Source: an uncultured Clostridia bacterium
GTDB lineage: Bacteria; Bacillota; Clostridia; Oscillospirales; JAAYOS01
Direction of reading: 5' to 3'
NCBI GenBank assembly: GCA_947593925.1
Contig: CANQDU010000007.1
Coordinates: forward strand, 18,408-82,407
DNA: 64,000 bases
Each line of letters starts with the position of its first letter. Position 1 is the first letter of the stretch. The notes beneath the pieces are model-generated. The model made no database searches and was not told the origin of the DNA. It saw only the letters and a list, made by a program, of their open reading frames with translations. The position numbers and the translations under genes were made by a program. This document shows positions 3,637-62,796 of this stretch, one piece after another.

Positions 3637-4468
3637 TTTCGCTTGCCTCCTTCATCTCGACGCCGCGCTCGAGCATCGCGGCAAGCGTCTCCGCGTCGCC
3701 GGAGCTTATCGCGCTCTCGAACGCGGAGAGACGGTCTATAAGGCCGCGCAGCTCGAAGGAGAGCGCGTCCCGGTTGTCAAGGAAGAGCTCGGTCCACATA
3801 TCCACCTTGAGCCGCGCGACGCGGGTGAGGTCCTTGAAGCTGCCGGCGGAGAAGCCGCCGTGCATCGCCGAAGTCTCGCTCTGGACGTAGGCGTTCGAGA
3901 CCACGTGCGCAAGCTGAGAGGTGTAGGCTATGACGCGGTCGTGCCGCTCCACGGAGGATACGGTTATCCGTCCAAAGCCGAGCGACAGAAAGAAGTCGTG
4001 AAGCGAGCCCATGAGGTCGGGATCGACGTCCTCCGGAGGGACGAGTATCATCGAAGCGCCATCGAACAGCTCCTCCTGCGATGCGGAGAAGCCGGAGATC
4101 TCGCGGCCGGCCATGGGGTGTCCGCCGATGAAGGCAAACCCGTGCTCGCGCGCGGCCTTGAAGCATTCGGGGCAGACGGCGCCCTTCACGCCGCATAGGT
4201 CGATAACGGCGGTGTCGAGCGAGAAGAGGTGCGCGTGCCCGAGCACGTAGTCCACCGTGGATTGCGGATACAGCGCGACGAGAACGAGGTCGCAGAGGGG
4301 CAGAGTCTCGTCGGTGAGGACGGCGTCAACGACGCCCTCGCCGAGCGCCGCTTCGAGCGGCGCCTTCGAGCGGTTGCATGCGTAGACCGTGTGGCCCGCG
4401 CCGGAGCGCTTTATCGCGCGCGCCATGCTCCCGCCAATGAGACCGAGGCCGACTATACCTATATTCAT
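3629..4468 (-). CDS. tyrA: Prephenate dehydrogenase
   Basis: The track ORF is 3629..4576. I place the start at the internal ATG at 4468 (MNIGIVGLGLIGGSMA, Rossmann GxGxxG), just downstream of the aroF stop at 4473. A GGHPMAG motif is present. Confidence 0.85.
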   Translation of the reverse strand: MNIGIVGLGLIGGSMARAIKRSGAGHTVYACNRSKAPLEAALGEGVVDAVLTDETLPLCDLVLVALYPQSTVDYVLGHAHLFSLDTAVIDLCGVKGAVCPECFKAAREHGFAFIGGHPMAGREISGFSASQEELFDGASMILVPPEDVDPDLMGSLHDFFLSLGFGRITVSSVERHDRVIAYTSQLAHVVSNAYVQSETSAMHGGFSAGSFKDLTRVARLKVDMWTELFLDNRDALSFELRGLIDRLSAFESAISSGDAETLAAMLERGVEMKEASENV

Positions 4469-4472
4469 ACGG

Positions 4473-5486
4473 TCACGCCTCGCGCTCGTAGGCATAGGGA
4501 CGGAGCGCGTCGATGCTCCGCATGAGGCGCTCGAAGTTCTTCGGGGTGAGCGACTGCGGGCCGTCGCAGAGGGCATGCGCCGGGTCGTTGTGTACCTCTA
4601 TGATGAGGCCGTCCGCTCCGGCGGCGACCGCCGCGAGTGCCGTCGGCGGGACGAGCGAGTGCTTGCCGGTGGCGTGGCTCGGGTCAACTATGACGGGGAG
4701 GTGGCTGAGGTCCTTGAGGACGGGCACGGCGCTGATGTCGAGAGTGTTGCGGGTGTAGGTCTCGAACGTGCGGATGCCGCGCTCGCAGAGCACGACCTGC
4801 TCGTTGCCGCCCGCCATGATGTACTCGGCGCTCATCAGCAGCTCCTCGAGCGTGGAGCTGAGGCCGCGCTTGAGGAGTATCGGCTTGCGGAGATGTCCGA
4901 GCTCCTTCAGGAGCTCGAAGTTCTGCATGTTGCGCGCGCCGACCTGAATCATGTCCACGTCGTCATACAGGCCGAGCTGGGAGAGATCCATTATCTCGGT
5001 GACTATCGGCAGTCCGGTCTCGCGCTTGGCCTCGACGAGGAGACGGATGCCGTCCTCGCGCAGTCCCTGGAAGGAGTAGGGCGAGGTGCGCGGCTTGAAC
5101 GCGCCGCCGCGCAGCAGCGTCGCGCCGGATGCCTTTACGGCCTTTGCGACGGCGCATATCTGCTCCTCGCTCTCGACCGAGCACGGGCCGGCTATGACCT
5201 GGAAGTTCCCACCGCCTATCTTCACGCCGCCGACGTCTACGACGGTGTCGTCCGGGTGGAACTTGCGGTTCGCGTTCTTGAACGGCTCCTGGACGCGCTT
5301 GACGTCTTCGACGATGTCGAGCGCCTGGATAAGGTCGATGTCGATCTTCGATGTGTCGCCGACGAGACCGAGGATGGTCTGAAGGTGGCCGACGGTCGTG
5401 TGGACGCTTATGCCCATATCGTCGAGCCACTTTGTCAGCATGTCGAGCTGCGCCTTGTCCGGGTTCTGCTTGAGAATGACGATCAT
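4473..5486 (-). CDS. aroF: 3-deoxy-7-phosphoheptulonate (DAHP) synthase, type I-beta, with an N-terminal ferredoxin-like regulatory domain
   Basis: The track ORF is 4473..5648. The likely start is the ATG at 5486 (MIVILKQ...), preceded by GGAGGAAT. The catalytic core reads IAGPCSVESEEQ...LLRGGAFKPRTSPYSFQGL. Confidence 0.9.
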   Translation of the reverse strand: MIVILKQNPDKAQLDMLTKWLDDMGISVHTTVGHLQTILGLVGDTSKIDIDLIQALDIVEDVKRVQEPFKNANRKFHPDDTVVDVGGVKIGGGNFQVIAGPCSVESEEQICAVAKAVKASGATLLRGGAFKPRTSPYSFQGLREDGIRLLVEAKRETGLPIVTEIMDLSQLGLYDDVDMIQVGARNMQNFELLKELGHLRKPILLKRGLSSTLEELLMSAEYIMAGGNEQVVLCERGIRTFETYTRNTLDISAVPVLKDLSHLPVIVDPSHATGKHSLVPPTALAAVAAGADGLIIEVHNDPAHALCDGPQSLTPKNFERLMRSIDALRPYAYEREA

Positions 5487-5541
5487 TTTTAATTCCTCCG
5501 ATACTTTTTGAAAGCGAGGCCCGTTCCGCGCCGCGCGGAAC

Positions 5542-5572
5542 AAAAAAGCTCCGCGGCGGTCTGCCGCGGAGC
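5542..5572 (-). terminator. Intrinsic terminator inside the aro operon 5' leader (attenuator terminator)
   Basis: The minus strand reads GCTCCGCGGC-AGACC-GCCGCGGAGC, a perfect 10-bp GC-rich stem, followed directly by TTTTTT. It lies 55 nt upstream of the aroF ATG and downstream of the leader ORF stop. Confidence 0.75.
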
Positions 5573-5592
5573 GTTGTTGCACAGATTGCGGT

Positions 5593-5697
5593 CTATGCCC
5601 TGACGTCTTCCACAGCAGAACAAGCCTTGCCGAAGTAATAGCCGGCAAAGCTGAAGCTAAAGTAGAAGTATCCGTTTTTACGCGAACAGTCAGACAT
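5593..5697 (-). CDS. Candidate aro-operon leader peptide, 34 aa, rich in Phe and Tyr
   Basis: It is the internal ATG of track ORF 5593..5793. GAGGT lies 8 nt upstream. Translation is MSDCSRKNGYFYFSFSFAGYYFGKACSAVEDVRA, with 5 Phe and 4 Tyr between codons 10 and 22. It sits between a sigma-70-like promoter and the leader terminator. Confidence 0.55.
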   Translation of the reverse strand: MSDCSRKNGYFYFSFSFAGYYFGKACSAVEDVRA

Positions 5698-5728
5698 AGG
5701 TTGGAACCTCGCTTTTGAACTTACGAAT

Positions 5729-5757
5729 ATTTTATATCCTGACGTCCGTTTTGTAAA
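5729..5757 (-). promoter_or_regulatory. Sigma-70-like promoter of the aro leader/operon
   Basis: The minus strand reads TTTACA-17 nt-TAAAAT (-35 at 5752..5757, -10 at 5729..5734). Confidence 0.45.
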
Positions 5758-57086: not shown

Positions 57087-57115
57087 TTGAATTTGCGTCG
57101 CCCATACATTATAAT
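57087..57115 (+). promoter_or_regulatory. Putative promoter of the DRTGG gene
   Basis: TTGAAT-17 nt-TATAAT. Confidence 0.45.
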
Positions 57116-57173: not shown

Positions 57174-57509
57174 GTGACTGTAGCGGAGCTTGCCTCGGCG
57201 CTCGGCGCTGAGGTACTGAATAAGGGCGATATGTCGCGGGAGGTTACGGGCGTGTATGTCTGCGACCTTATTGGCCGCGCCGCCGCGCGGATGCGCCGGG
57301 GCGACGCGTGGATAACGATAATGACGAACCGCAACGTCGCGGCGGCGGCGGAGATAGCGGGCGCGGCGTGCGTCCTCATGGCGGACGACGTCTCGCCGGA
57401 TGCGGAGCTCGCGCGTGTCATGACGGGGACCGGCGCGGCGTTCCTCCGGTGCGGCGGCTCCGCATATACGCTGGCTCACACCCTGCGCCGCCTGACGGGG
57501 CTCGAATAG
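57174..57509 (+). CDS. DRTGG domain-containing protein
   Basis: 111 aa, GTG start after GGGAGGAG. MTVAELASALGAEVLNKGDMSREVTGVYVCDLI...ITIMTNRNVAAAAEIAGAACVLMADD matches my recollection of the small DRTGG proteins encoded beside [FeFe] hydrogenase operons. Confidence 0.7.
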   Translation: MTVAELASALGAEVLNKGDMSREVTGVYVCDLIGRAAARMRRGDAWITIMTNRNVAAAAEIAGAACVLMADDVSPDAELARVMTGTGAAFLRCGGSAYTLAHTLRRLTGLE

Positions 57510-57611
57510 CGGACGAAAAAAGCATTGGCAGAAAGTGTAACTTTTGTTACAGAACGTGCGCCCTCACGGAAAAGAACGATTTTTTCGGCACAAAATGCAG
57601 AATCAAACCTG

Positions 57612-57640
57612 TTGCAAAGTCGAAAAAAGTGTGCTAAAAT
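57612..57640 (+). promoter_or_regulatory. Promoter of the hydrogenase operon
   Basis: TTGCAA-17 nt-TAAAAT with an extended -10 TG (TGcTAAAAT), 55 nt upstream of the hydC ATG. Confidence 0.55.
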
Positions 57641-57695
57641 CATATCAGATTCAAAAGCGGGAGTATGCCCGCTTGTAAATGGAGGAGGTTTTTCG

Positions 57696-58193
57696 ATGCC
57701 CAATACAAAGACCAAGGTGGCCTTCAAAGGCACGCCCGAGCAGGAGGCGGAGCTGAAGAAGTTCATCGCCGAGATCAAGCACGAGAAGGGCGCAACGATG
57801 CCGATTCTCCAGAAGGCGCAGGAGATCTACGGATACCTGCCCGAGGAGGTTCAGGTCATCATCGCGGAGGAGACCGGCATTCCGCTCACGGAGATCTACG
57901 GTATCGCCACTTTCTACGCACAGTTCGCGCTCAACCCGAAGGGCGAGACACAGATCAGCGTCTGCCTCGGTACCGCCTGCTACGTCAAGGGCTCCGGCGA
58001 CGTTCTGCAGAAGGTCGTTGACACCATCGGCTGTGAAGCGGGTTCCATCACGTCCGACGGAAAGTTCTCGATAGACGCCACCCGCTGCATCGGCGCGTGC
58101 GGACTTGCGCCGGTCATGACCGTCAACGGCGAGGTCTACGGACGTATGACCCCGGCAATGGTTCCCGAGATACTTAAGCAGTACATGGAGTAA
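57696..58193 (+). CDS. hydC: NuoE-like [2Fe-2S] subunit of NAD(P)H-dependent/bifurcating [FeFe] hydrogenase (HydC)
   Basis: The start is the ATG at 57696 after GGAGGAGG, inside track ORF 57525..58193. Motifs CLGTACYVKG...CIGACGLAPV give the C-x4-C...C-x3-C 2Fe-2S pattern. Confidence 0.9.
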   Translation: MPNTKTKVAFKGTPEQEAELKKFIAEIKHEKGATMPILQKAQEIYGYLPEEVQVIIAEETGIPLTEIYGIATFYAQFALNPKGETQISVCLGTACYVKGSGDVLQKVVDTIGCEAGSITSDGKFSIDATRCIGACGLAPVMTVNGEVYGRMTPAMVPEILKQYME

Positions 58194-58197
58194 GACC

Positions 58198-58725
58198 GTG
58201 CGGGATATCTCCGAAAGCATCCTTGACGTCCTCATGAACTCAGTGGGCGCCGGCGCGCGGAAGGTCGAGCTTACGCTGTTCCTCTCCGAGAGGGAGGACA
58301 CGGTCGGGTTCGAGGTTCGCGACGACGGACGCGGCATGAGCCGCGAAACGCTCGAACGCGCGGCGGATCCGTTCTTTTCGACGGACGGAGCGCGCGGAGC
58401 CGGGCTCGGACTTTCGCTCCTTAGGAGCGAGGCGGAGCAGGCGGACGGAGGGATGAAAATAGAGAGCCGCGAGGGCCGCGGGACGCGCGTGAGGGCGTGG
58501 TACCGGGCCTCGAGTCTCGATACGCCGCCGGTAGGCGACGTCGGGCTCACGGCGGAGCTTTTCCTTTCGGGGAGACCGGGCATGGAATTTGTCTTTCGCT
58601 GCCGAAGCGACATGCTCTGCCGGGAATTACGGACGGGCGCGGAAGGCGGCGAAACGCCGGACATACCGCAGTCGGTGCGCGAGCGCGTGCGGGAGATGAC
58701 GGCGGAGATAACACAGGGTAAATAA
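58198..58725 (+). CDS. GHKL/HATPase_c-only ATP-binding protein, with no HisKA domain
   Basis: 175 aa, GTG start. N box ILDVLMNSVGAGA, G1 DDGRGM and G2 GAGLGLSL. There is no H-box and no TM segment. Confidence 0.75.
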   Translation: MRDISESILDVLMNSVGAGARKVELTLFLSEREDTVGFEVRDDGRGMSRETLERAADPFFSTDGARGAGLGLSLLRSEAEQADGGMKIESREGRGTRVRAWYRASSLDTPPVGDVGLTAELFLSGRPGMEFVFRCRSDMLCRELRTGAEGGETPDIPQSVRERVREMTAEITQGK

Positions 58726-58754
58726 ACTTCTGAAAAACGGAGGATAGAGTTCAG

Positions 58755-59093
58755 ATGGCAAAGAGCACAACAGAGCTCCAGGAAATGCGGGAGCAGATGG
58801 CGGGGCAGATGAGCCTGCGCGTCGAGGACAAGAACGCCATTCGCGTAGTCGTCGGCATGGGTACCTGCGGTATCGCGGCCGGCGCGCGCGACATAATGCG
58901 TGTGATCGTCGATGAGGTCGGCGCGCACAACGCGACTCACGTCAAGGTCATCATGGACGGCAACAATAAGGACGCAGCGAACGCGCCCGTTGTCGAGATC
59001 CATGTCCTTGGCAAGGACACCGTCACCTACACTAAGGTGGACGCCGCAAAGGCAAAGCAGATAGCCGCCGAGGTCATCGGCGAAGCGAAGTAA
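58755..59093 (+). CDS. Thioredoxin-like [2Fe-2S]-ferredoxin-fold protein (HydD-like) that lacks most Cys ligands
   Basis: 112 aa. IRVVVGMGTCGIAAGARD resembles the start of hydrogenase-operon 2Fe-2S ferredoxin-domain proteins, but the whole protein contains only one Cys. Confidence 0.6.
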   Translation: MAKSTTELQEMREQMAGQMSLRVEDKNAIRVVVGMGTCGIAAGARDIMRVIVDEVGAHNATHVKVIMDGNNKDAANAPVVEIHVLGKDTVTYTKVDAAKAKQIAAEVIGEAK

Positions 59094-59105
59094 GGAGGCG
59101 CCAAT

Positions 59106-60905
59106 ATGAATTTCGCAAGAGCACACATCATGGTCTGCGGAGGCACCGGCTGCACTTCGTCGAAGAGCCCGGAGATAGCCGCAGAGTTCAGAAAACAGCT
59201 TGAGGCCGCCGGCCTCGCGGACGAGGTCAAGGTCGTACAGACCGGATGCTTCGGTCTGTGCGCGCTCGGCCCGATAGTCGTCGTCTACCCCGAGGGTTCG
59301 TTCTACTCGATGGTGACTATCGACGACGTCAAGGAGATAGTGGACGAGCACCTCGTCAAGGGCCGCCCGGTCGAGCGTCTGCTCTATCACGAGGGCGCCG
59401 ACCATCACGGAACCGTCCACTCCTCGCTTAACGATACCGACTTCTACCGCAAGCAGAAGCGCATAGCGCTCCGCAACTGCGGACGCATCAACCCCGAGAA
59501 CATCGACGAGTACATAGCCTTCGACGGATACAAGGCGCTTGAGAAGGTCCTCAAGACCATGCAGCCGCAGGAGGTCATCGACGTCGTTAAGGCGTCCGGT
59601 CTGCGCGGCCGCGGCGGCGCGGGCTTCCCGACCGGCAACAAGTGGCAGTTCGCGGCAAACGAGAAGAACGACGTCAAGTACGTCTGCTGCAACGCCGACG
59701 AGGGCGACCCGGGCGCGTTCATGGACCGTTCGGTCCTCGAGGGCGACCCGCACAGCGTCATCGAGGCGATGGCTATAGCCGGCTACGCCGCCGGCGCTCA
59801 CGAGGGCTACGTTTACGTCCGCGCCGAGTACCCGATAGCCGTTCACCGTCTCAACATAGCCATCGAGCAGGCCCGCGAGTACGGCATGCTCGGCAAGAAC
59901 ATTTTCGGCACCGGCTTCGACTTCGATATAATCGTCCGTCTTGGCGCAGGCGCGTTTGTCTGCGGCGAGGAGACCGCGCTCATGACCTCCATCGAGGGTC
60001 ACCGCGGCGAGCCGCGTCCGCGTCCTCCGTTCCCGGCGGTCAAGGGCCTCTTCGGCCAGCCGACGCTCGAGAACAACGTCGAGACCTTCGCGAACATCAC
60101 TTGGATAATCAACAACGGACCCGAGGCGTTTGCGGCCATGGGCACCGAGCGCTCGAAGGGCACCAAGGTCTTTGCCCTCGGCGGAAAGATAACCAACACC
60201 GGCCTTGTCGAGATCCCGATGGGCACCACGCTCCGCGAGGTCGTCGAGGAGATAGGCGGCGGCGTTCCGAACGGCAAGAAGTTCAAGGCCGCTCAGACCG
60301 GCGGCCCGTCCGGCGGCTGTCTGCCCGCGAGCCTTATCGACACCCCGCTCGACTATGAGTCGATGGCGGCCGTCGGTTCGATAGTCGGCTCCGGCGGACT
60401 CATCGTCATGGACGAGGACAACTGCATGGTCGATATAGCCAAGTTCTTCCTCGAGTTCACCGTCGATGAGAGCTGCGGAAAGTGCGCGCCCTGCCGTATA
60501 GGCACCCGCCGTATGCTCGAGATACTCAACAAGATTACCTCCGGCAACGGCACCCTTGAGGACATCGACCGCCTCGAGGAGCTGTGCGAGCACGTCAAGG
60601 CCAACTCCCTGTGCGGCCTCGGCCAGACCGCCCCGAACCCGGTCCTGTCCACCCTCAAGCACTTCCGCGATGAGTATGTCGCTCACGTCGTGGACAAGAA
60701 GTGTCCCGCCGGCGTCTGCAAGGACCTGCTCAACTACAGCATCGACCCCGAGAAGTGCAAGGGCTGCACCGCGTGCGCGAGGGCGTGCCCGGTCGGCGCT
60801 ATCACCGGTACCGTCAAGGAGCCCCATACGATAGACACAAGCAAGTGCATCAAGTGCGGCACCTGCATATCGAAGTGCCGTTTCGGCGCTATCACCAAGG
60901 GTTAA
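59106..60905 (+). CDS. hydB: NuoF-like flavoprotein subunit of [FeFe] hydrogenase (HydB)
   Basis: 599 aa. N-terminal 2Fe-2S site (VCGGTGC...TGCFGLC), FMN/NADH motifs GRGGAGFPTGNKW and CNADEGDPGAFMDR, 4Fe-4S site ESCGKCAPCR, and two C-terminal CxxCxxCxxxCP ferredoxin motifs. Confidence 0.93.
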   Translation: MNFARAHIMVCGGTGCTSSKSPEIAAEFRKQLEAAGLADEVKVVQTGCFGLCALGPIVVVYPEGSFYSMVTIDDVKEIVDEHLVKGRPVERLLYHEGADHHGTVHSSLNDTDFYRKQKRIALRNCGRINPENIDEYIAFDGYKALEKVLKTMQPQEVIDVVKASGLRGRGGAGFPTGNKWQFAANEKNDVKYVCCNADEGDPGAFMDRSVLEGDPHSVIEAMAIAGYAAGAHEGYVYVRAEYPIAVHRLNIAIEQAREYGMLGKNIFGTGFDFDIIVRLGAGAFVCGEETALMTSIEGHRGEPRPRPPFPAVKGLFGQPTLENNVETFANITWIINNGPEAFAAMGTERSKGTKVFALGGKITNTGLVEIPMGTTLREVVEEIGGGVPNGKKFKAAQTGGPSGGCLPASLIDTPLDYESMAAVGSIVGSGGLIVMDEDNCMVDIAKFFLEFTVDESCGKCAPCRIGTRRMLEILNKITSGNGTLEDIDRLEELCEHVKANSLCGLGQTAPNPVLSTLKHFRDEYVAHVVDKKCPAGVCKDLLNYSIDPEKCKGCTACARACPVGAITGTVKEPHTIDTSKCIKCGTCISKCRFGAITKG

Positions 60906-60921
60906 GCGGAGGAGAACACAA

Positions 60922-62691
60922 ATGGATATGGTAAATGTTAAAGTCAACGGCATTCCGGTATCGGTTCCCGCCGGTTCGACCGTTCTTGAGGCGGCAAACG
61001 CCGCCGGTGTGGATATCCCCACCCTCTGCTACATGAAGGAGATAAACGCCATCGGCGCCTGCCGTATGTGCGTTACCGAGGTCACCGGCGCGCGCGGACT
61101 TGTCGCCGCCTGCGTCTACCCCGTGGCCGAGGGCATGGAGATAAACACCAACTCGAAGAAGGCTTACGATGCGCGCAAGCGCACCCTCGAGCTCATTCTT
61201 TCCAATCACCGCATGGAGTGCACCACCTGCGCCCGCAGCCACAACTGCGAGCTGCAGAAGCTGGCAAACGAGTACGGCGTCAAGGAAGTCCGCTTCGGCG
61301 ACCCCGGCTCCCTCCAGCCGCAGATAGAGTGCTCGACCGCGCACCTCATCCGTGACAACAGCAAGTGCGTCCTCTGCCGCCGCTGCATGGCTGTCTGCAA
61401 CCACCTGCAGAGCGTGGCCGTCATCGGCGCGAGCGAGCGCGGCTTTGCCACCCACATCGGCAGCCCGTTTGACCGCGGACTCGGCGAGGTCGGCTGCATC
61501 AGCTGCGGCCAGTGCATCGCTGTCTGCCCGACCGGCGCCCTCACCGAGGTCGACGATACCGACAAGGTCTGGGCGGCGCTCGCCGATCCCACCAAGCACG
61601 TCGTCGTCGGCACCGCTCCCGCGGTCCGCGCCGCTCTCGGCGAGGAATTCGGCGAGAAGATAGGCACCAACGTCGAGGGCAAGATGGTCGCGGCTCTCCG
61701 CCGCCTCGGCTTCGACGGTGTGTTTGACGTCAACGCCGGCGCCGACCTCACCATCATGGAGGAGGCCAACGAGCTCGTCGAGCGCGTCAAGAACGGCGGC
61801 GTCCTGCCGATGATAACCTCTTGCTCGCCCGGATGGGTCCGCTTCTGCGAGCAGTACTTCCCGGAGTTCATCCCGAACCTTTCGACCTGCAAGAGCCCGC
61901 AGCAGATGTTCGGTGCGATGATGAAGAGCTACTATGCAAAGCAGGCCGGCATCGATCCGAAGGACATCTTCGTCGTCACCGCCATGCCCTGCACCGCGAA
62001 GAAGTACGAGATCCGCCGTCCCGACGAGGCGTCGGTTGACGGTCTGTGGGACATCGACGCGACCATCACCACCCGTGAGCTCGCGAAGATGATCCGCAAG
62101 GCCGGCATCAAGTTCGAGCGTCTGCCGGACGAGAAGTTCGACCCGGCGTTCGGCGACTTCACCGGTGCGGGCGTCATCTTCGGCGCTACCGGCGGCGTCA
62201 TGGAGGCCGCCCTCCGTACCGCCGTCGAGACTCTCACCGGAGAGGAGCTCAAGAAGCTCGACTTTACCGAGGTCCGCGGCGTCGCGGGCATCAAGGAAGC
62301 CAGCTATGAGGTCGCGGGCATGACCGTCAAGGTCGCCGTCGCGAGCGGCATGGCCAACGCCAAGGAGCTGCTCGAGCGCGTCAAGCGCGGCGAGGCCACC
62401 TATCACTTCATCGAGATAATGGGCTGCCCGGGCGGCTGCGTCAACGGCGGCGGTCAGCCGATCCAGCCCGGCAACGTCCGCAACTTCGTCGATCTGCGCG
62501 CCGAGCGCGCGAAGGCGCTCTACGCTCAGGACGCGGCTATGCCGATACGCAAGAGCCACGAGAGCCCGCTGATGAAGAAGGTCTATGCCGAGTACCTCGG
62601 CAAGCCCGGCAGCCACCTCGCGCACGAGCTGCTGCACACCAGCTACGCCAAGCGTTCGCGCTACCCCGGCCTCGAGGCCGAGAAGGCGTAA
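60922..62691 (+). CDS. hydA: [FeFe] hydrogenase catalytic subunit, M3-type architecture (HydA)
   Basis: 589 aa. N-terminal 2Fe-2S site, His-ligated 4Fe-4S site (HRMECTTCARSHNCELQ) and two 4Fe-4S ferredoxin motifs. H-domain motifs are L2 MPCTAKKYE and L3 EIMGCPGGCVNGGGQP. The L1 motif reads TSCSPGW, which is non-canonical. Confidence 0.9.
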   Translation: MDMVNVKVNGIPVSVPAGSTVLEAANAAGVDIPTLCYMKEINAIGACRMCVTEVTGARGLVAACVYPVAEGMEINTNSKKAYDARKRTLELILSNHRMECTTCARSHNCELQKLANEYGVKEVRFGDPGSLQPQIECSTAHLIRDNSKCVLCRRCMAVCNHLQSVAVIGASERGFATHIGSPFDRGLGEVGCISCGQCIAVCPTGALTEVDDTDKVWAALADPTKHVVVGTAPAVRAALGEEFGEKIGTNVEGKMVAALRRLGFDGVFDVNAGADLTIMEEANELVERVKNGGVLPMITSCSPGWVRFCEQYFPEFIPNLSTCKSPQQMFGAMMKSYYAKQAGIDPKDIFVVTAMPCTAKKYEIRRPDEASVDGLWDIDATITTRELAKMIRKAGIKFERLPDEKFDPAFGDFTGAGVIFGATGGVMEAALRTAVETLTGEELKKLDFTEVRGVAGIKEASYEVAGMTVKVAVASGMANAKELLERVKRGEATYHFIEIMGCPGGCVNGGGQPIQPGNVRNFVDLRAERAKALYAQDAAMPIRKSHESPLMKKVYAEYLGKPGSHLAHELLHTSYAKRSRYPGLEAEKA

Positions 62692-62715: not shown

Positions 62716-62752
62716 GCTCCGGACGGTACAGCGTACCGTCCGGAGCTTTTTT
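62716..62752 (+). terminator. Intrinsic terminator after hydA
   Basis: GCTCCGGACGGTAC-agc-GTACCGTCCGGAGC (14-bp perfect stem) followed by TTTTTT. Confidence 0.85.
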
Positions 62753-62796
62753 GTTTGCCGATTTCGGGAGCGGCACAGAAAGCGGTCAAGTCGTTG

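Follow-up and report, generated by a model that had tools for sequence, protein, structure and literature searches.

Introduction

In the [FeFe]-hydrogenase CpI of Clostridium pasteurianum the residue C299 of the L1 motif is the proton relay, C300, C355, C499 and C503 bind the H-cluster's [4Fe-4S] subcluster ([4Fe-4S]H), and by convention it is C503, in the L3 motif, that is the bridging cysteine. Here we analyze the gene hydA in a 64,000-nucleotide stretch of DNA from an uncultured Clostridia bacterium (contig CANQDU010000007.1; this whole stretch is called the window below), in whose product the second L1 cysteine is replaced by serine, and compare it with the closest hydrogenases described so far.

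In HydA1 of Thermoanaerobacter kivui the second cysteine of TSCCPSW (Cys299Tk) has been named as a cluster ligand, and in HydA1 of Acetobacterium woodii Ser301 takes this cysteine's place, with the H-cluster signature in Fourier-transform infrared (FTIR) spectra unaffected and an activity similar to that of the Cys-type T. kivui enzyme (Katsyv et al. 2023, JACS 145:5696, PMC10021017). The motif TSCSPGW had been noted earlier in trimeric hydrogenases of Melainabacteria ACD20 (Di Rienzi et al. 2013, PMC3787301), and the engineered variant C170S of CrHydA1 keeps its [4Fe-4S] cluster, accepts the [2Fe] subsite slowly and evolves H2 (Kertess et al. 2017, PMC5855289). A full-text literature search for TSCSP returned Di Rienzi et al. 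as its sole relevant result, Katsyv et al. being reached through a Protein Data Bank (PDB) match; a literature search for a serine ligand of the H-cluster gave nothing beyond Katsyv et al., and an account of the hydrogenases of Clostridium acetogens (PMC9431212) contains no discussion of L1 variants.

As judged from motif comparisons, the window gene belongs to a large natural subclass with the L1 motif TSCSPGW. By analogy with the A. woodii enzyme we consider it highly probable (roughly 90%) that its product is a normal catalytic HydA, in which [4Fe-4S]H would have the Oγ of Ser302 as its fourth ligand and C301 would remain the proton relay.

Results

A serine at the ligand position of an otherwise canonical HydA

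The gene and its H-cluster motifs are located as follows.

60922..62691, + strand: hydA, 589 amino acids, with the Pfam domains Fer2_4, NADH-G_4Fe-4S_3, two 4Fe-4S ferredoxin motifs (Fer4_9/Fer4_7), Fe_hyd_lg_C and Fe_hyd_SSU
61816..61836, + strand: L1 motif TSCSPGW (T299-W305) of HydA, H-cluster, from translation and alignment to CpI and A. woodii HydA1
61825..61827, + strand: Ser302 codon TCG, two substitutions from TGC or TGT
61984..62010, + strand: L2 motif MPCTAKKYE, amino acids 355-363, canonical; C357 equals CpI C355 and K360 equals CpI K358
62413..62460, + strand: L3 motif EIMGCPGGCVNGGGQP, amino acids 498-513, canonical; C502 equals CpI C499 and C506 equals CpI C503

The H-domain of the encoded protein is covered by PF02906 (Fe_hyd_lg_C, E 5.2e-99, over the full profile 1-245) and PF02256 (Fe_hyd_SSU, E 9.1e-24), and in its F-domain a 2Fe-2S, an NADH-G-type 4Fe-4S and two ferredoxin-type 4Fe-4S clusters are predicted, as group A3 requires. 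Its best PDB match is HydA1 of A. woodii (7q4v_A; also chain A of 7q4w and 8a5e) at E 5e-223, with 57% identity over 578 residues, and the HydB and HydC subunits that mark a group A3 HydABC enzyme are both encoded in the hydA operon. The window has a GC content of 62%, and the closest named relatives are annotated as Oscillospiraceae or uncultured Clostridia. Judging from these sequence features, the gene, from a high-GC Clostridia bacterium, most likely encodes the HydA of a group A3 NAD(P)-/ferredoxin-linked electron-bifurcating/confurcating [FeFe]-hydrogenase. The preliminary description of this DNA had already taken it for the catalytic subunit of a HydABC-type enzyme, a view that the Pfam domains, the PDB matches of HydB and HydC and the operon context bear out.

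Re-reading of the codons at 61816-61836 (ACC TCT TGC TCG CCC GGA TGG, + strand, hydA frame) gives T299 S300 C301 S302 P303 G304 W305, and together with the alignment confirms the TSCSPGW translation and the canonical L2 and L3 that had been described before. The L1 region is ungapped in the comparison with A. woodii, where 'lpmitscspgwikf' of 7q4v_A faces 'lpmitscspgwvrf' of the window, and counting on the aligned chain places Ser301Aw opposite Ser302. It is likewise ungapped in the HMMER alignment with CpI, in which C301 corresponds to C299 and S302 to C300; a residue count on the CpI chain itself reads T297-S298-C299-C300-P301. The preliminary description had assigned the relay to the first cysteine and the ligand to the second, and had allowed that the two might be reversed; CpI numbering and Katsyv et al. 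agree on the assignment as it was made. One detail of nomenclature departs from the convention for CpI, in that Cys354Tk/Cys356Aw is named as the bridge to the di-iron subsite (PMC10021017). By alignment this residue is the cysteine of L2 and corresponds to CpI C355; the naming may be a numbering slip, without effect on the statement about Ser301.

Apart from the ligand position, the catalytic machinery of CpI is retained. An alignment script found the proton-transfer residues kept in window HydA (CpI=window: E279=E281, E282=E284, R286=R288, C299=C301 and S319=S321), as well as the other catalytic positions (M353=M355, C355=C357, K358=K360, M497=M500, C499=C502 and C503=C506). The protein fits the L2 consensus MPCxxKxxE and the L3 consensus ExMxCxxGCxxGGGQP, with C357, C502 and C506 as the three remaining cluster cysteines. 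It does not fit the strict textbook L1 consensus TSCCPxW, but does fit L1 as it occurs in solved members, TSC[C/S]PxW, where the relay Cys is followed by a Cys or Ser ligand.

A further cysteine, Cys309 (61846-61848), lies seven residues past Ser302; it is kept in 76/79 related loci; A. woodii HydA1 has Ile and CpI has Ala at this position.

The Ser-type motif prevails among close relatives and recurs among distant ones

We took the best 120 homologues (66-99% identity) from a search of 5.8 billion proteins, and 80 species-representative genome loci (GTDB; 63-79% identity) as related loci. TSCSPGW is present in 119 of these 120 proteins, the remaining one having TSCCPGW, and in 79 of the 80 species loci, so that the comparison of orthologues in sister genomes proposed in the preliminary description finds Ser kept at the ligand position. 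The labels of the 80 loci are mostly Oscillospiraceae, Lachnospiraceae, Ruminococcus, Eubacteriales and unclassified Clostridia metagenome-assembled genomes, and the isolates Zongyangia hominis and Neobittarella massiliensis are among them. Across the 79 loci the serine is encoded by TCA (27), TCT (24), TCG (13), TCC (11) and AGC (4); both Ser codon families are thus in use, which points to long-standing selection for serine.

The sole Cys-type close relative (P0057, identical to positions 3984-5744 of locus L007) reads TSCCPGW, with IPC in place of MPC in L2. Ser-type sequences surround it: its nearest neighbor (84.6% identity) is of the Ser type, as are the thirteen that follow, and on this sequence evidence it looks like a Ser-to-Cys reversion. 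Because it sits inside the Ser-type sequences, it suggests that Cys and Ser are interchangeable on this HydA scaffold.

In a wider survey, 1.84 billion 50%-identity representatives were searched exhaustively with HMMER. Matches at E <= 1e-30 numbered 2451 proteins, and motifs were extracted by alignment from the best 150 of the 2451 (extraction by regular expression had missed 35 of the 150). Among these 150 the L1 pair is Cys-Ser in 27 (18%), Cys-Cys in 101 and something else in 22, a share of Cys-Ser that is biased towards the relatives of window HydA, since the best 150 are the top scorers to that query. L2 and L3 are mostly canonical in the 27 Cys-Ser representatives, and the class of 22 includes SC, GC and AC pairs in which the first Cys is altered, as is typical of sensory or degenerate homologues. 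Even with this bias, motif counts indicate that the Cys-Ser variant is not rare. A crude neighbor-joining tree of 131 H-domains (50%-identity representatives) with Fitch parsimony implied ~15 state changes and did not gather the Ser-type sequences into one clean clade; such a tree is too noisy for counting events at 40-55% identity, and we draw from it no number of Ser origins, only that Ser-type and Cys-type sequences are, in this crude reconstruction, interspersed at depth. The premise of the preliminary description that natural variants alter only the first Cys, with the rarity it implied, does not hold against these counts (119/120, 79/80 and 27/150 Ser-type). It had also named as decisive against its own view a finding that TSCSPxW is common in biochemically normal group A enzymes, and this is what we find, A. 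woodii HydABC included.

One match from the representative library is of a different kind: P0121, a protein of 4122 amino acids, carries seven tandem H-domain copies, with L1 as TSCCASW or TSCCAGW (Pro replaced by Ala), L2 as LMPCTVKK, and L3 as EIMMCEGGC in six copies and EIMMCNGGC in the seventh. It could be an unusual multi-hydrogenase polyprotein or an assembly artefact.

Ser302 as the probable fourth ligand of the [4Fe-4S] subcluster

In the mechanism that we propose, the Ser302 hydroxyl(ate) would bind the [4Fe-4S] subcluster where a cysteine thiolate otherwise does, completing the set of four protein ligands together with C357, C502 and C506, and C301 would keep its role as proton relay to the bridging amine. 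On this view the window enzyme should work as a normal catalytic hydrogenase in both directions, and the Cys-to-Ser difference would be tolerated and under purifying selection within the clade, with at most a modest tuning effect. What is shown here is the window sequence, how it aligns, how far it is conserved and in which operon it lies; Ser ligation, a normal FTIR signature and normal activity come from the A. woodii literature, and we infer that they carry over to the window protein.

Several points weigh against this proposal. The ligation by Ser302 is an extrapolation from a homologue at 57% identity. Moreover, the resolution of the A. woodii cryo-electron microscopy map is such that it does not measure an Fe-O bond precisely. 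The report on that enzyme also gives no redox potentials for the Ser-ligated cluster (PMC10021017). In CrHydA1, four active variants reached ~0.2-8% of wild type in H2 evolution and ~0.5-32% in uptake after 1 h of maturation, and C170S, whose activity rose ~threefold after 30 h, inserted the [2Fe] subsite slowly and was biased towards H2 evolution (PMC5855289). Because C170S is impaired, a Cys-to-Ser exchange is not intrinsically neutral, and natural enzymes may carry compensating changes.

The alternatives differ in how far they depart from a catalytic, Ser-ligated enzyme. The preliminary description had offered a ligand swap, in which Ser302 would not be a ligand and C301 or Cys309 would bind the cluster instead. 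The conservation of Cys309 in the related loci speaks for such a swap, but in the A. woodii structure it is Ser301 that is modeled as ligand, and C301 as a ligand would abolish the relay, yet A. woodii HydABC is fully active with H/D exchange chemistry of the canonical type (PMC10021017). Given the Ile of A. woodii and the Ala of CpI at its position, Cys309 is no general solution either; as a substitute cluster ligand it is unlikely, and the swap as a whole we regard as very improbable. That the serine could stem from a sequencing or assembly error, or from a decaying pseudogene, has nothing in its favor beyond the departure from the textbook motif, and this reading is refuted to the point of being negligible: the open reading frame is intact over its 589 amino acids with all domains present, the exact HydA protein is encoded on 4 public contigs, a Logan assembly (L082) holds the gene at 100% nucleotide identity with TCG, and an ENA assembly (L081) at 97.2% nucleotide identity has synonymous changes in the Ser300 and Gly304 codons and the same TCG, all in addition to the conservation of Ser in 79/80 species. 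The two independent assemblies thus uphold the earlier judgment that a base error is unlikely in a codon two substitutions away from those for Cys. The departure from the canonical L1 might also be read as the mark of a non-catalytic sensory (HydS-like, group C/D) or Nar1-like homologue. Membership in group C/D fails, however, on the presence of the relay Cys C301 with the full proton-transfer pathway and on the architecture of the protein, which is that of HydA1, with no PAS or other signaling domain found in HydA by Pfam; the gene is embedded in a hydC-hydB-hydA operon, and the sensory-type representatives of the survey alter the first Cys instead (SC, GC, AC). We give this possibility practically no credence.

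A different question is whether the natural Ser, rather than being a near-neutral variant, acts as a tuning device that, with co-adapted neighbors, shifts the potential of [4Fe-4S]H or biases catalysis, for instance to H2 evolution in confurcating fermenters. The C170S/D variants of CrHydA1 are biased in this direction (PMC5855289), Ser is strongly conserved over ~80 species with both Ser codon families, and the positions at which Ser-type sequences (n=27) diverge most from Cys-type ones (n=101) flank the ligands:

61813-61815, + strand: HydA residue 298, I/F (Ser-type/Cys-type)
61831-61833, + strand: HydA residue 304, G/A
62416-62418, + strand: HydA residue 499, I/V
62422-62424, + strand: HydA residue 501, G/A

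These four residues may, as far as their covariation tells, reflect local co-adaptation to the Ser ligand, in a comparison that is not phylogeny-corrected and that counts for less on this account. Against tuning stand the lack of an FTIR difference and the similar activities of the A. woodii (Ser) and T. kivui (Cys) enzymes (PMC10021017), the service of the A. woodii enzyme in both H2 uptake and formation (PMC6288185), hence no simple link to direction, and the apparent Ser-to-Cys reversion inside the clade. We consider tuning of this kind doubtful, and a little more doubtful still its fullest form, in which the Ser ligand would define a distinct natural H-cluster class whose potential and bias are shifted against those of Cys-type enzymes, with I298, G304, I499 and G501 as co-adapted residues that make the shift workable. 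If it were true, this class would prevail among HydABC enzymes in gut and rumen Clostridia, the source of most organism labels of the related loci; the published FTIR remark of 'no apparent influence' would have missed a real electrochemical difference; and the window gene would be an ordinary member of the class, not its discovery.

The hyd operon and its surroundings

The genes and signals that accompany hydA are the following.

57174..57509, + strand: DRTGG-domain protein, 111 amino acids, first gene of the cluster; conserved in 19/80 related loci
57693..58193, + strand: hydC, NuoE-like thioredoxin-like [2Fe-2S] subunit; PF01257 E 3.4e-49, best PDB match 7q4v_C, E 1.8e-52
58198..58725, + strand: HATPase_c-only protein (histidine-kinase-type ATPase), 175 amino acids, operon accessory; present in 48/80 related loci
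58755..59093, + strand: 112-amino-acid protein with one Cys and no Pfam match; between the HATPase_c gene and hydB in 51/80 related loci
59106..60905, + strand: hydB, 599 amino acids, NuoF-like FMN (flavin mononucleotide)/NAD(P)-binding subunit; best PDB match 7q4v_B, E 1.7e-293
62716..62756, + strand: strong intrinsic-terminator-like hairpin, 14-bp stem with 10 G-C pairs, then a T-run; 25 nt past the hydA stop

For hydC the mechanical open reading frame begins at the TTG at 57525, and translation more probably starts at the ATG at 57693. HydB has the Pfam domains Complex1_51K, NADH_4Fe-4S and 2Fe-2S_thioredx and two of Fer4, with the 2Fe-2S domain N-terminal and the 2x[4Fe-4S] domain C-terminal; in 79/80 related loci hydB is the gene immediately before hydA, and the order hydC-HATPase-112aa-hydB-hydA recurs in the majority of the 80. 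The hairpin marks the end of the operon, with hydA as the last gene of the co-directional cluster. Against the PDB the 112-amino-acid protein gave only a weak match (E 9e-4), to HoxF (8oh5_B), in the N-terminal thioredoxin-like 2Fe-2S domain; it lacks the cluster cysteines of this domain and has no matching chain among the A. woodii PDB entries. The A. woodii HydABCD enzyme has an extra subunit of ~15 kDa, HydD, predicted to be cofactor-less (PMC6288185), and the 112-amino-acid protein may be its equivalent.

Promoter-like sites occur at 57087-57115 and 57612-57640. The genes upstream are ordinary (a GH2 glycosidase, a member of the homoserine O-succinyltransferase family (HTS), uronate isomerase and sugar catabolism), and the gene downstream of the hyd cluster encodes an M3 peptidase. 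No tRNA genes and no Rfam matches at the gathering threshold were found in the whole 64-kb window (1-64000). Because of the GC content, the window contains many long spurious antisense open reading frames, such as one at 57651-61022 (- strand, 1123 amino acids) across the hyd operon.

Discussion

The comparisons made here indicate that TSCCPxW, the L1 pattern of the textbooks, is drawn too narrowly, and that motif filters built on it would wrongly flag or discard many genuine catalytic HydABC hydrogenases, amounting to 18% of the 150 best-scoring diverse representatives and ~99% of the close Clostridia relatives. On the biophysical effect of the natural Ser ligand, be it midpoint potential, bias, or O2 or maturation behavior, the literature searched offers one FTIR sentence (PMC10021017).

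Set beside the known systems, window HydA shares with CpI (group A1) the fold, the F-domain and the H-domain (E ~1e-163) and the catalytic and proton-transfer residues except C300, but CpI reads TSCCPGW and is a monomeric, ferredoxin-dependent enzyme without HydB/HydC partners. The HydA proteins of T. kivui (PDB 8A6T; E 4.6e-180) and Thermotoga maritima (PDB 7P5H) belong to the same HydABC complex type and agree in L2 and L3, with T. kivui differing in its canonical TSCCPSW, where Cys299Tk is the ligand; because the T. kivui HydABC is Cys-type, Ser is not required for bifurcation. CrHydA1 C170S carries the Cys-to-Ser exchange at the ligand position that matches Ser302, yet it is an artificial mutant in a Cys-adapted scaffold, with lowered activity and a bias to H2 evolution, whereas natural Ser-type enzymes appear unimpaired. 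The Melainabacteria ACD20 pair has TSCSPGW in trimeric hydrogenases of the confurcating type, but in both of its proteins one L3 cysteine is replaced by isoleucine, while L3 of the window protein is intact. The nearest counterpart is A. woodii HydA1 (PDB 7Q4V, 7Q4W and 8A5E), which has the identical L1 motif TSCSPGW and the same domain architecture, and whose HydB and HydC chains are also the best PDB matches of their window counterparts, in an operon that likewise includes a small, probably cofactor-less protein. The two differ in 43% of their residues, among them the Ile where the window has Cys309 and the L3 motif, which reads MAC there and MGC in the window; A. woodii is also another organism, the window coming from a genome of 62% GC. 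TSCSPGW is common in biochemically normal group A enzymes, and window HydA is another member of the Ser-type HydABC clade, and its Ser-for-Cys ligand is not novel, being already described in a solved and characterized homologue and the majority state in its clade.

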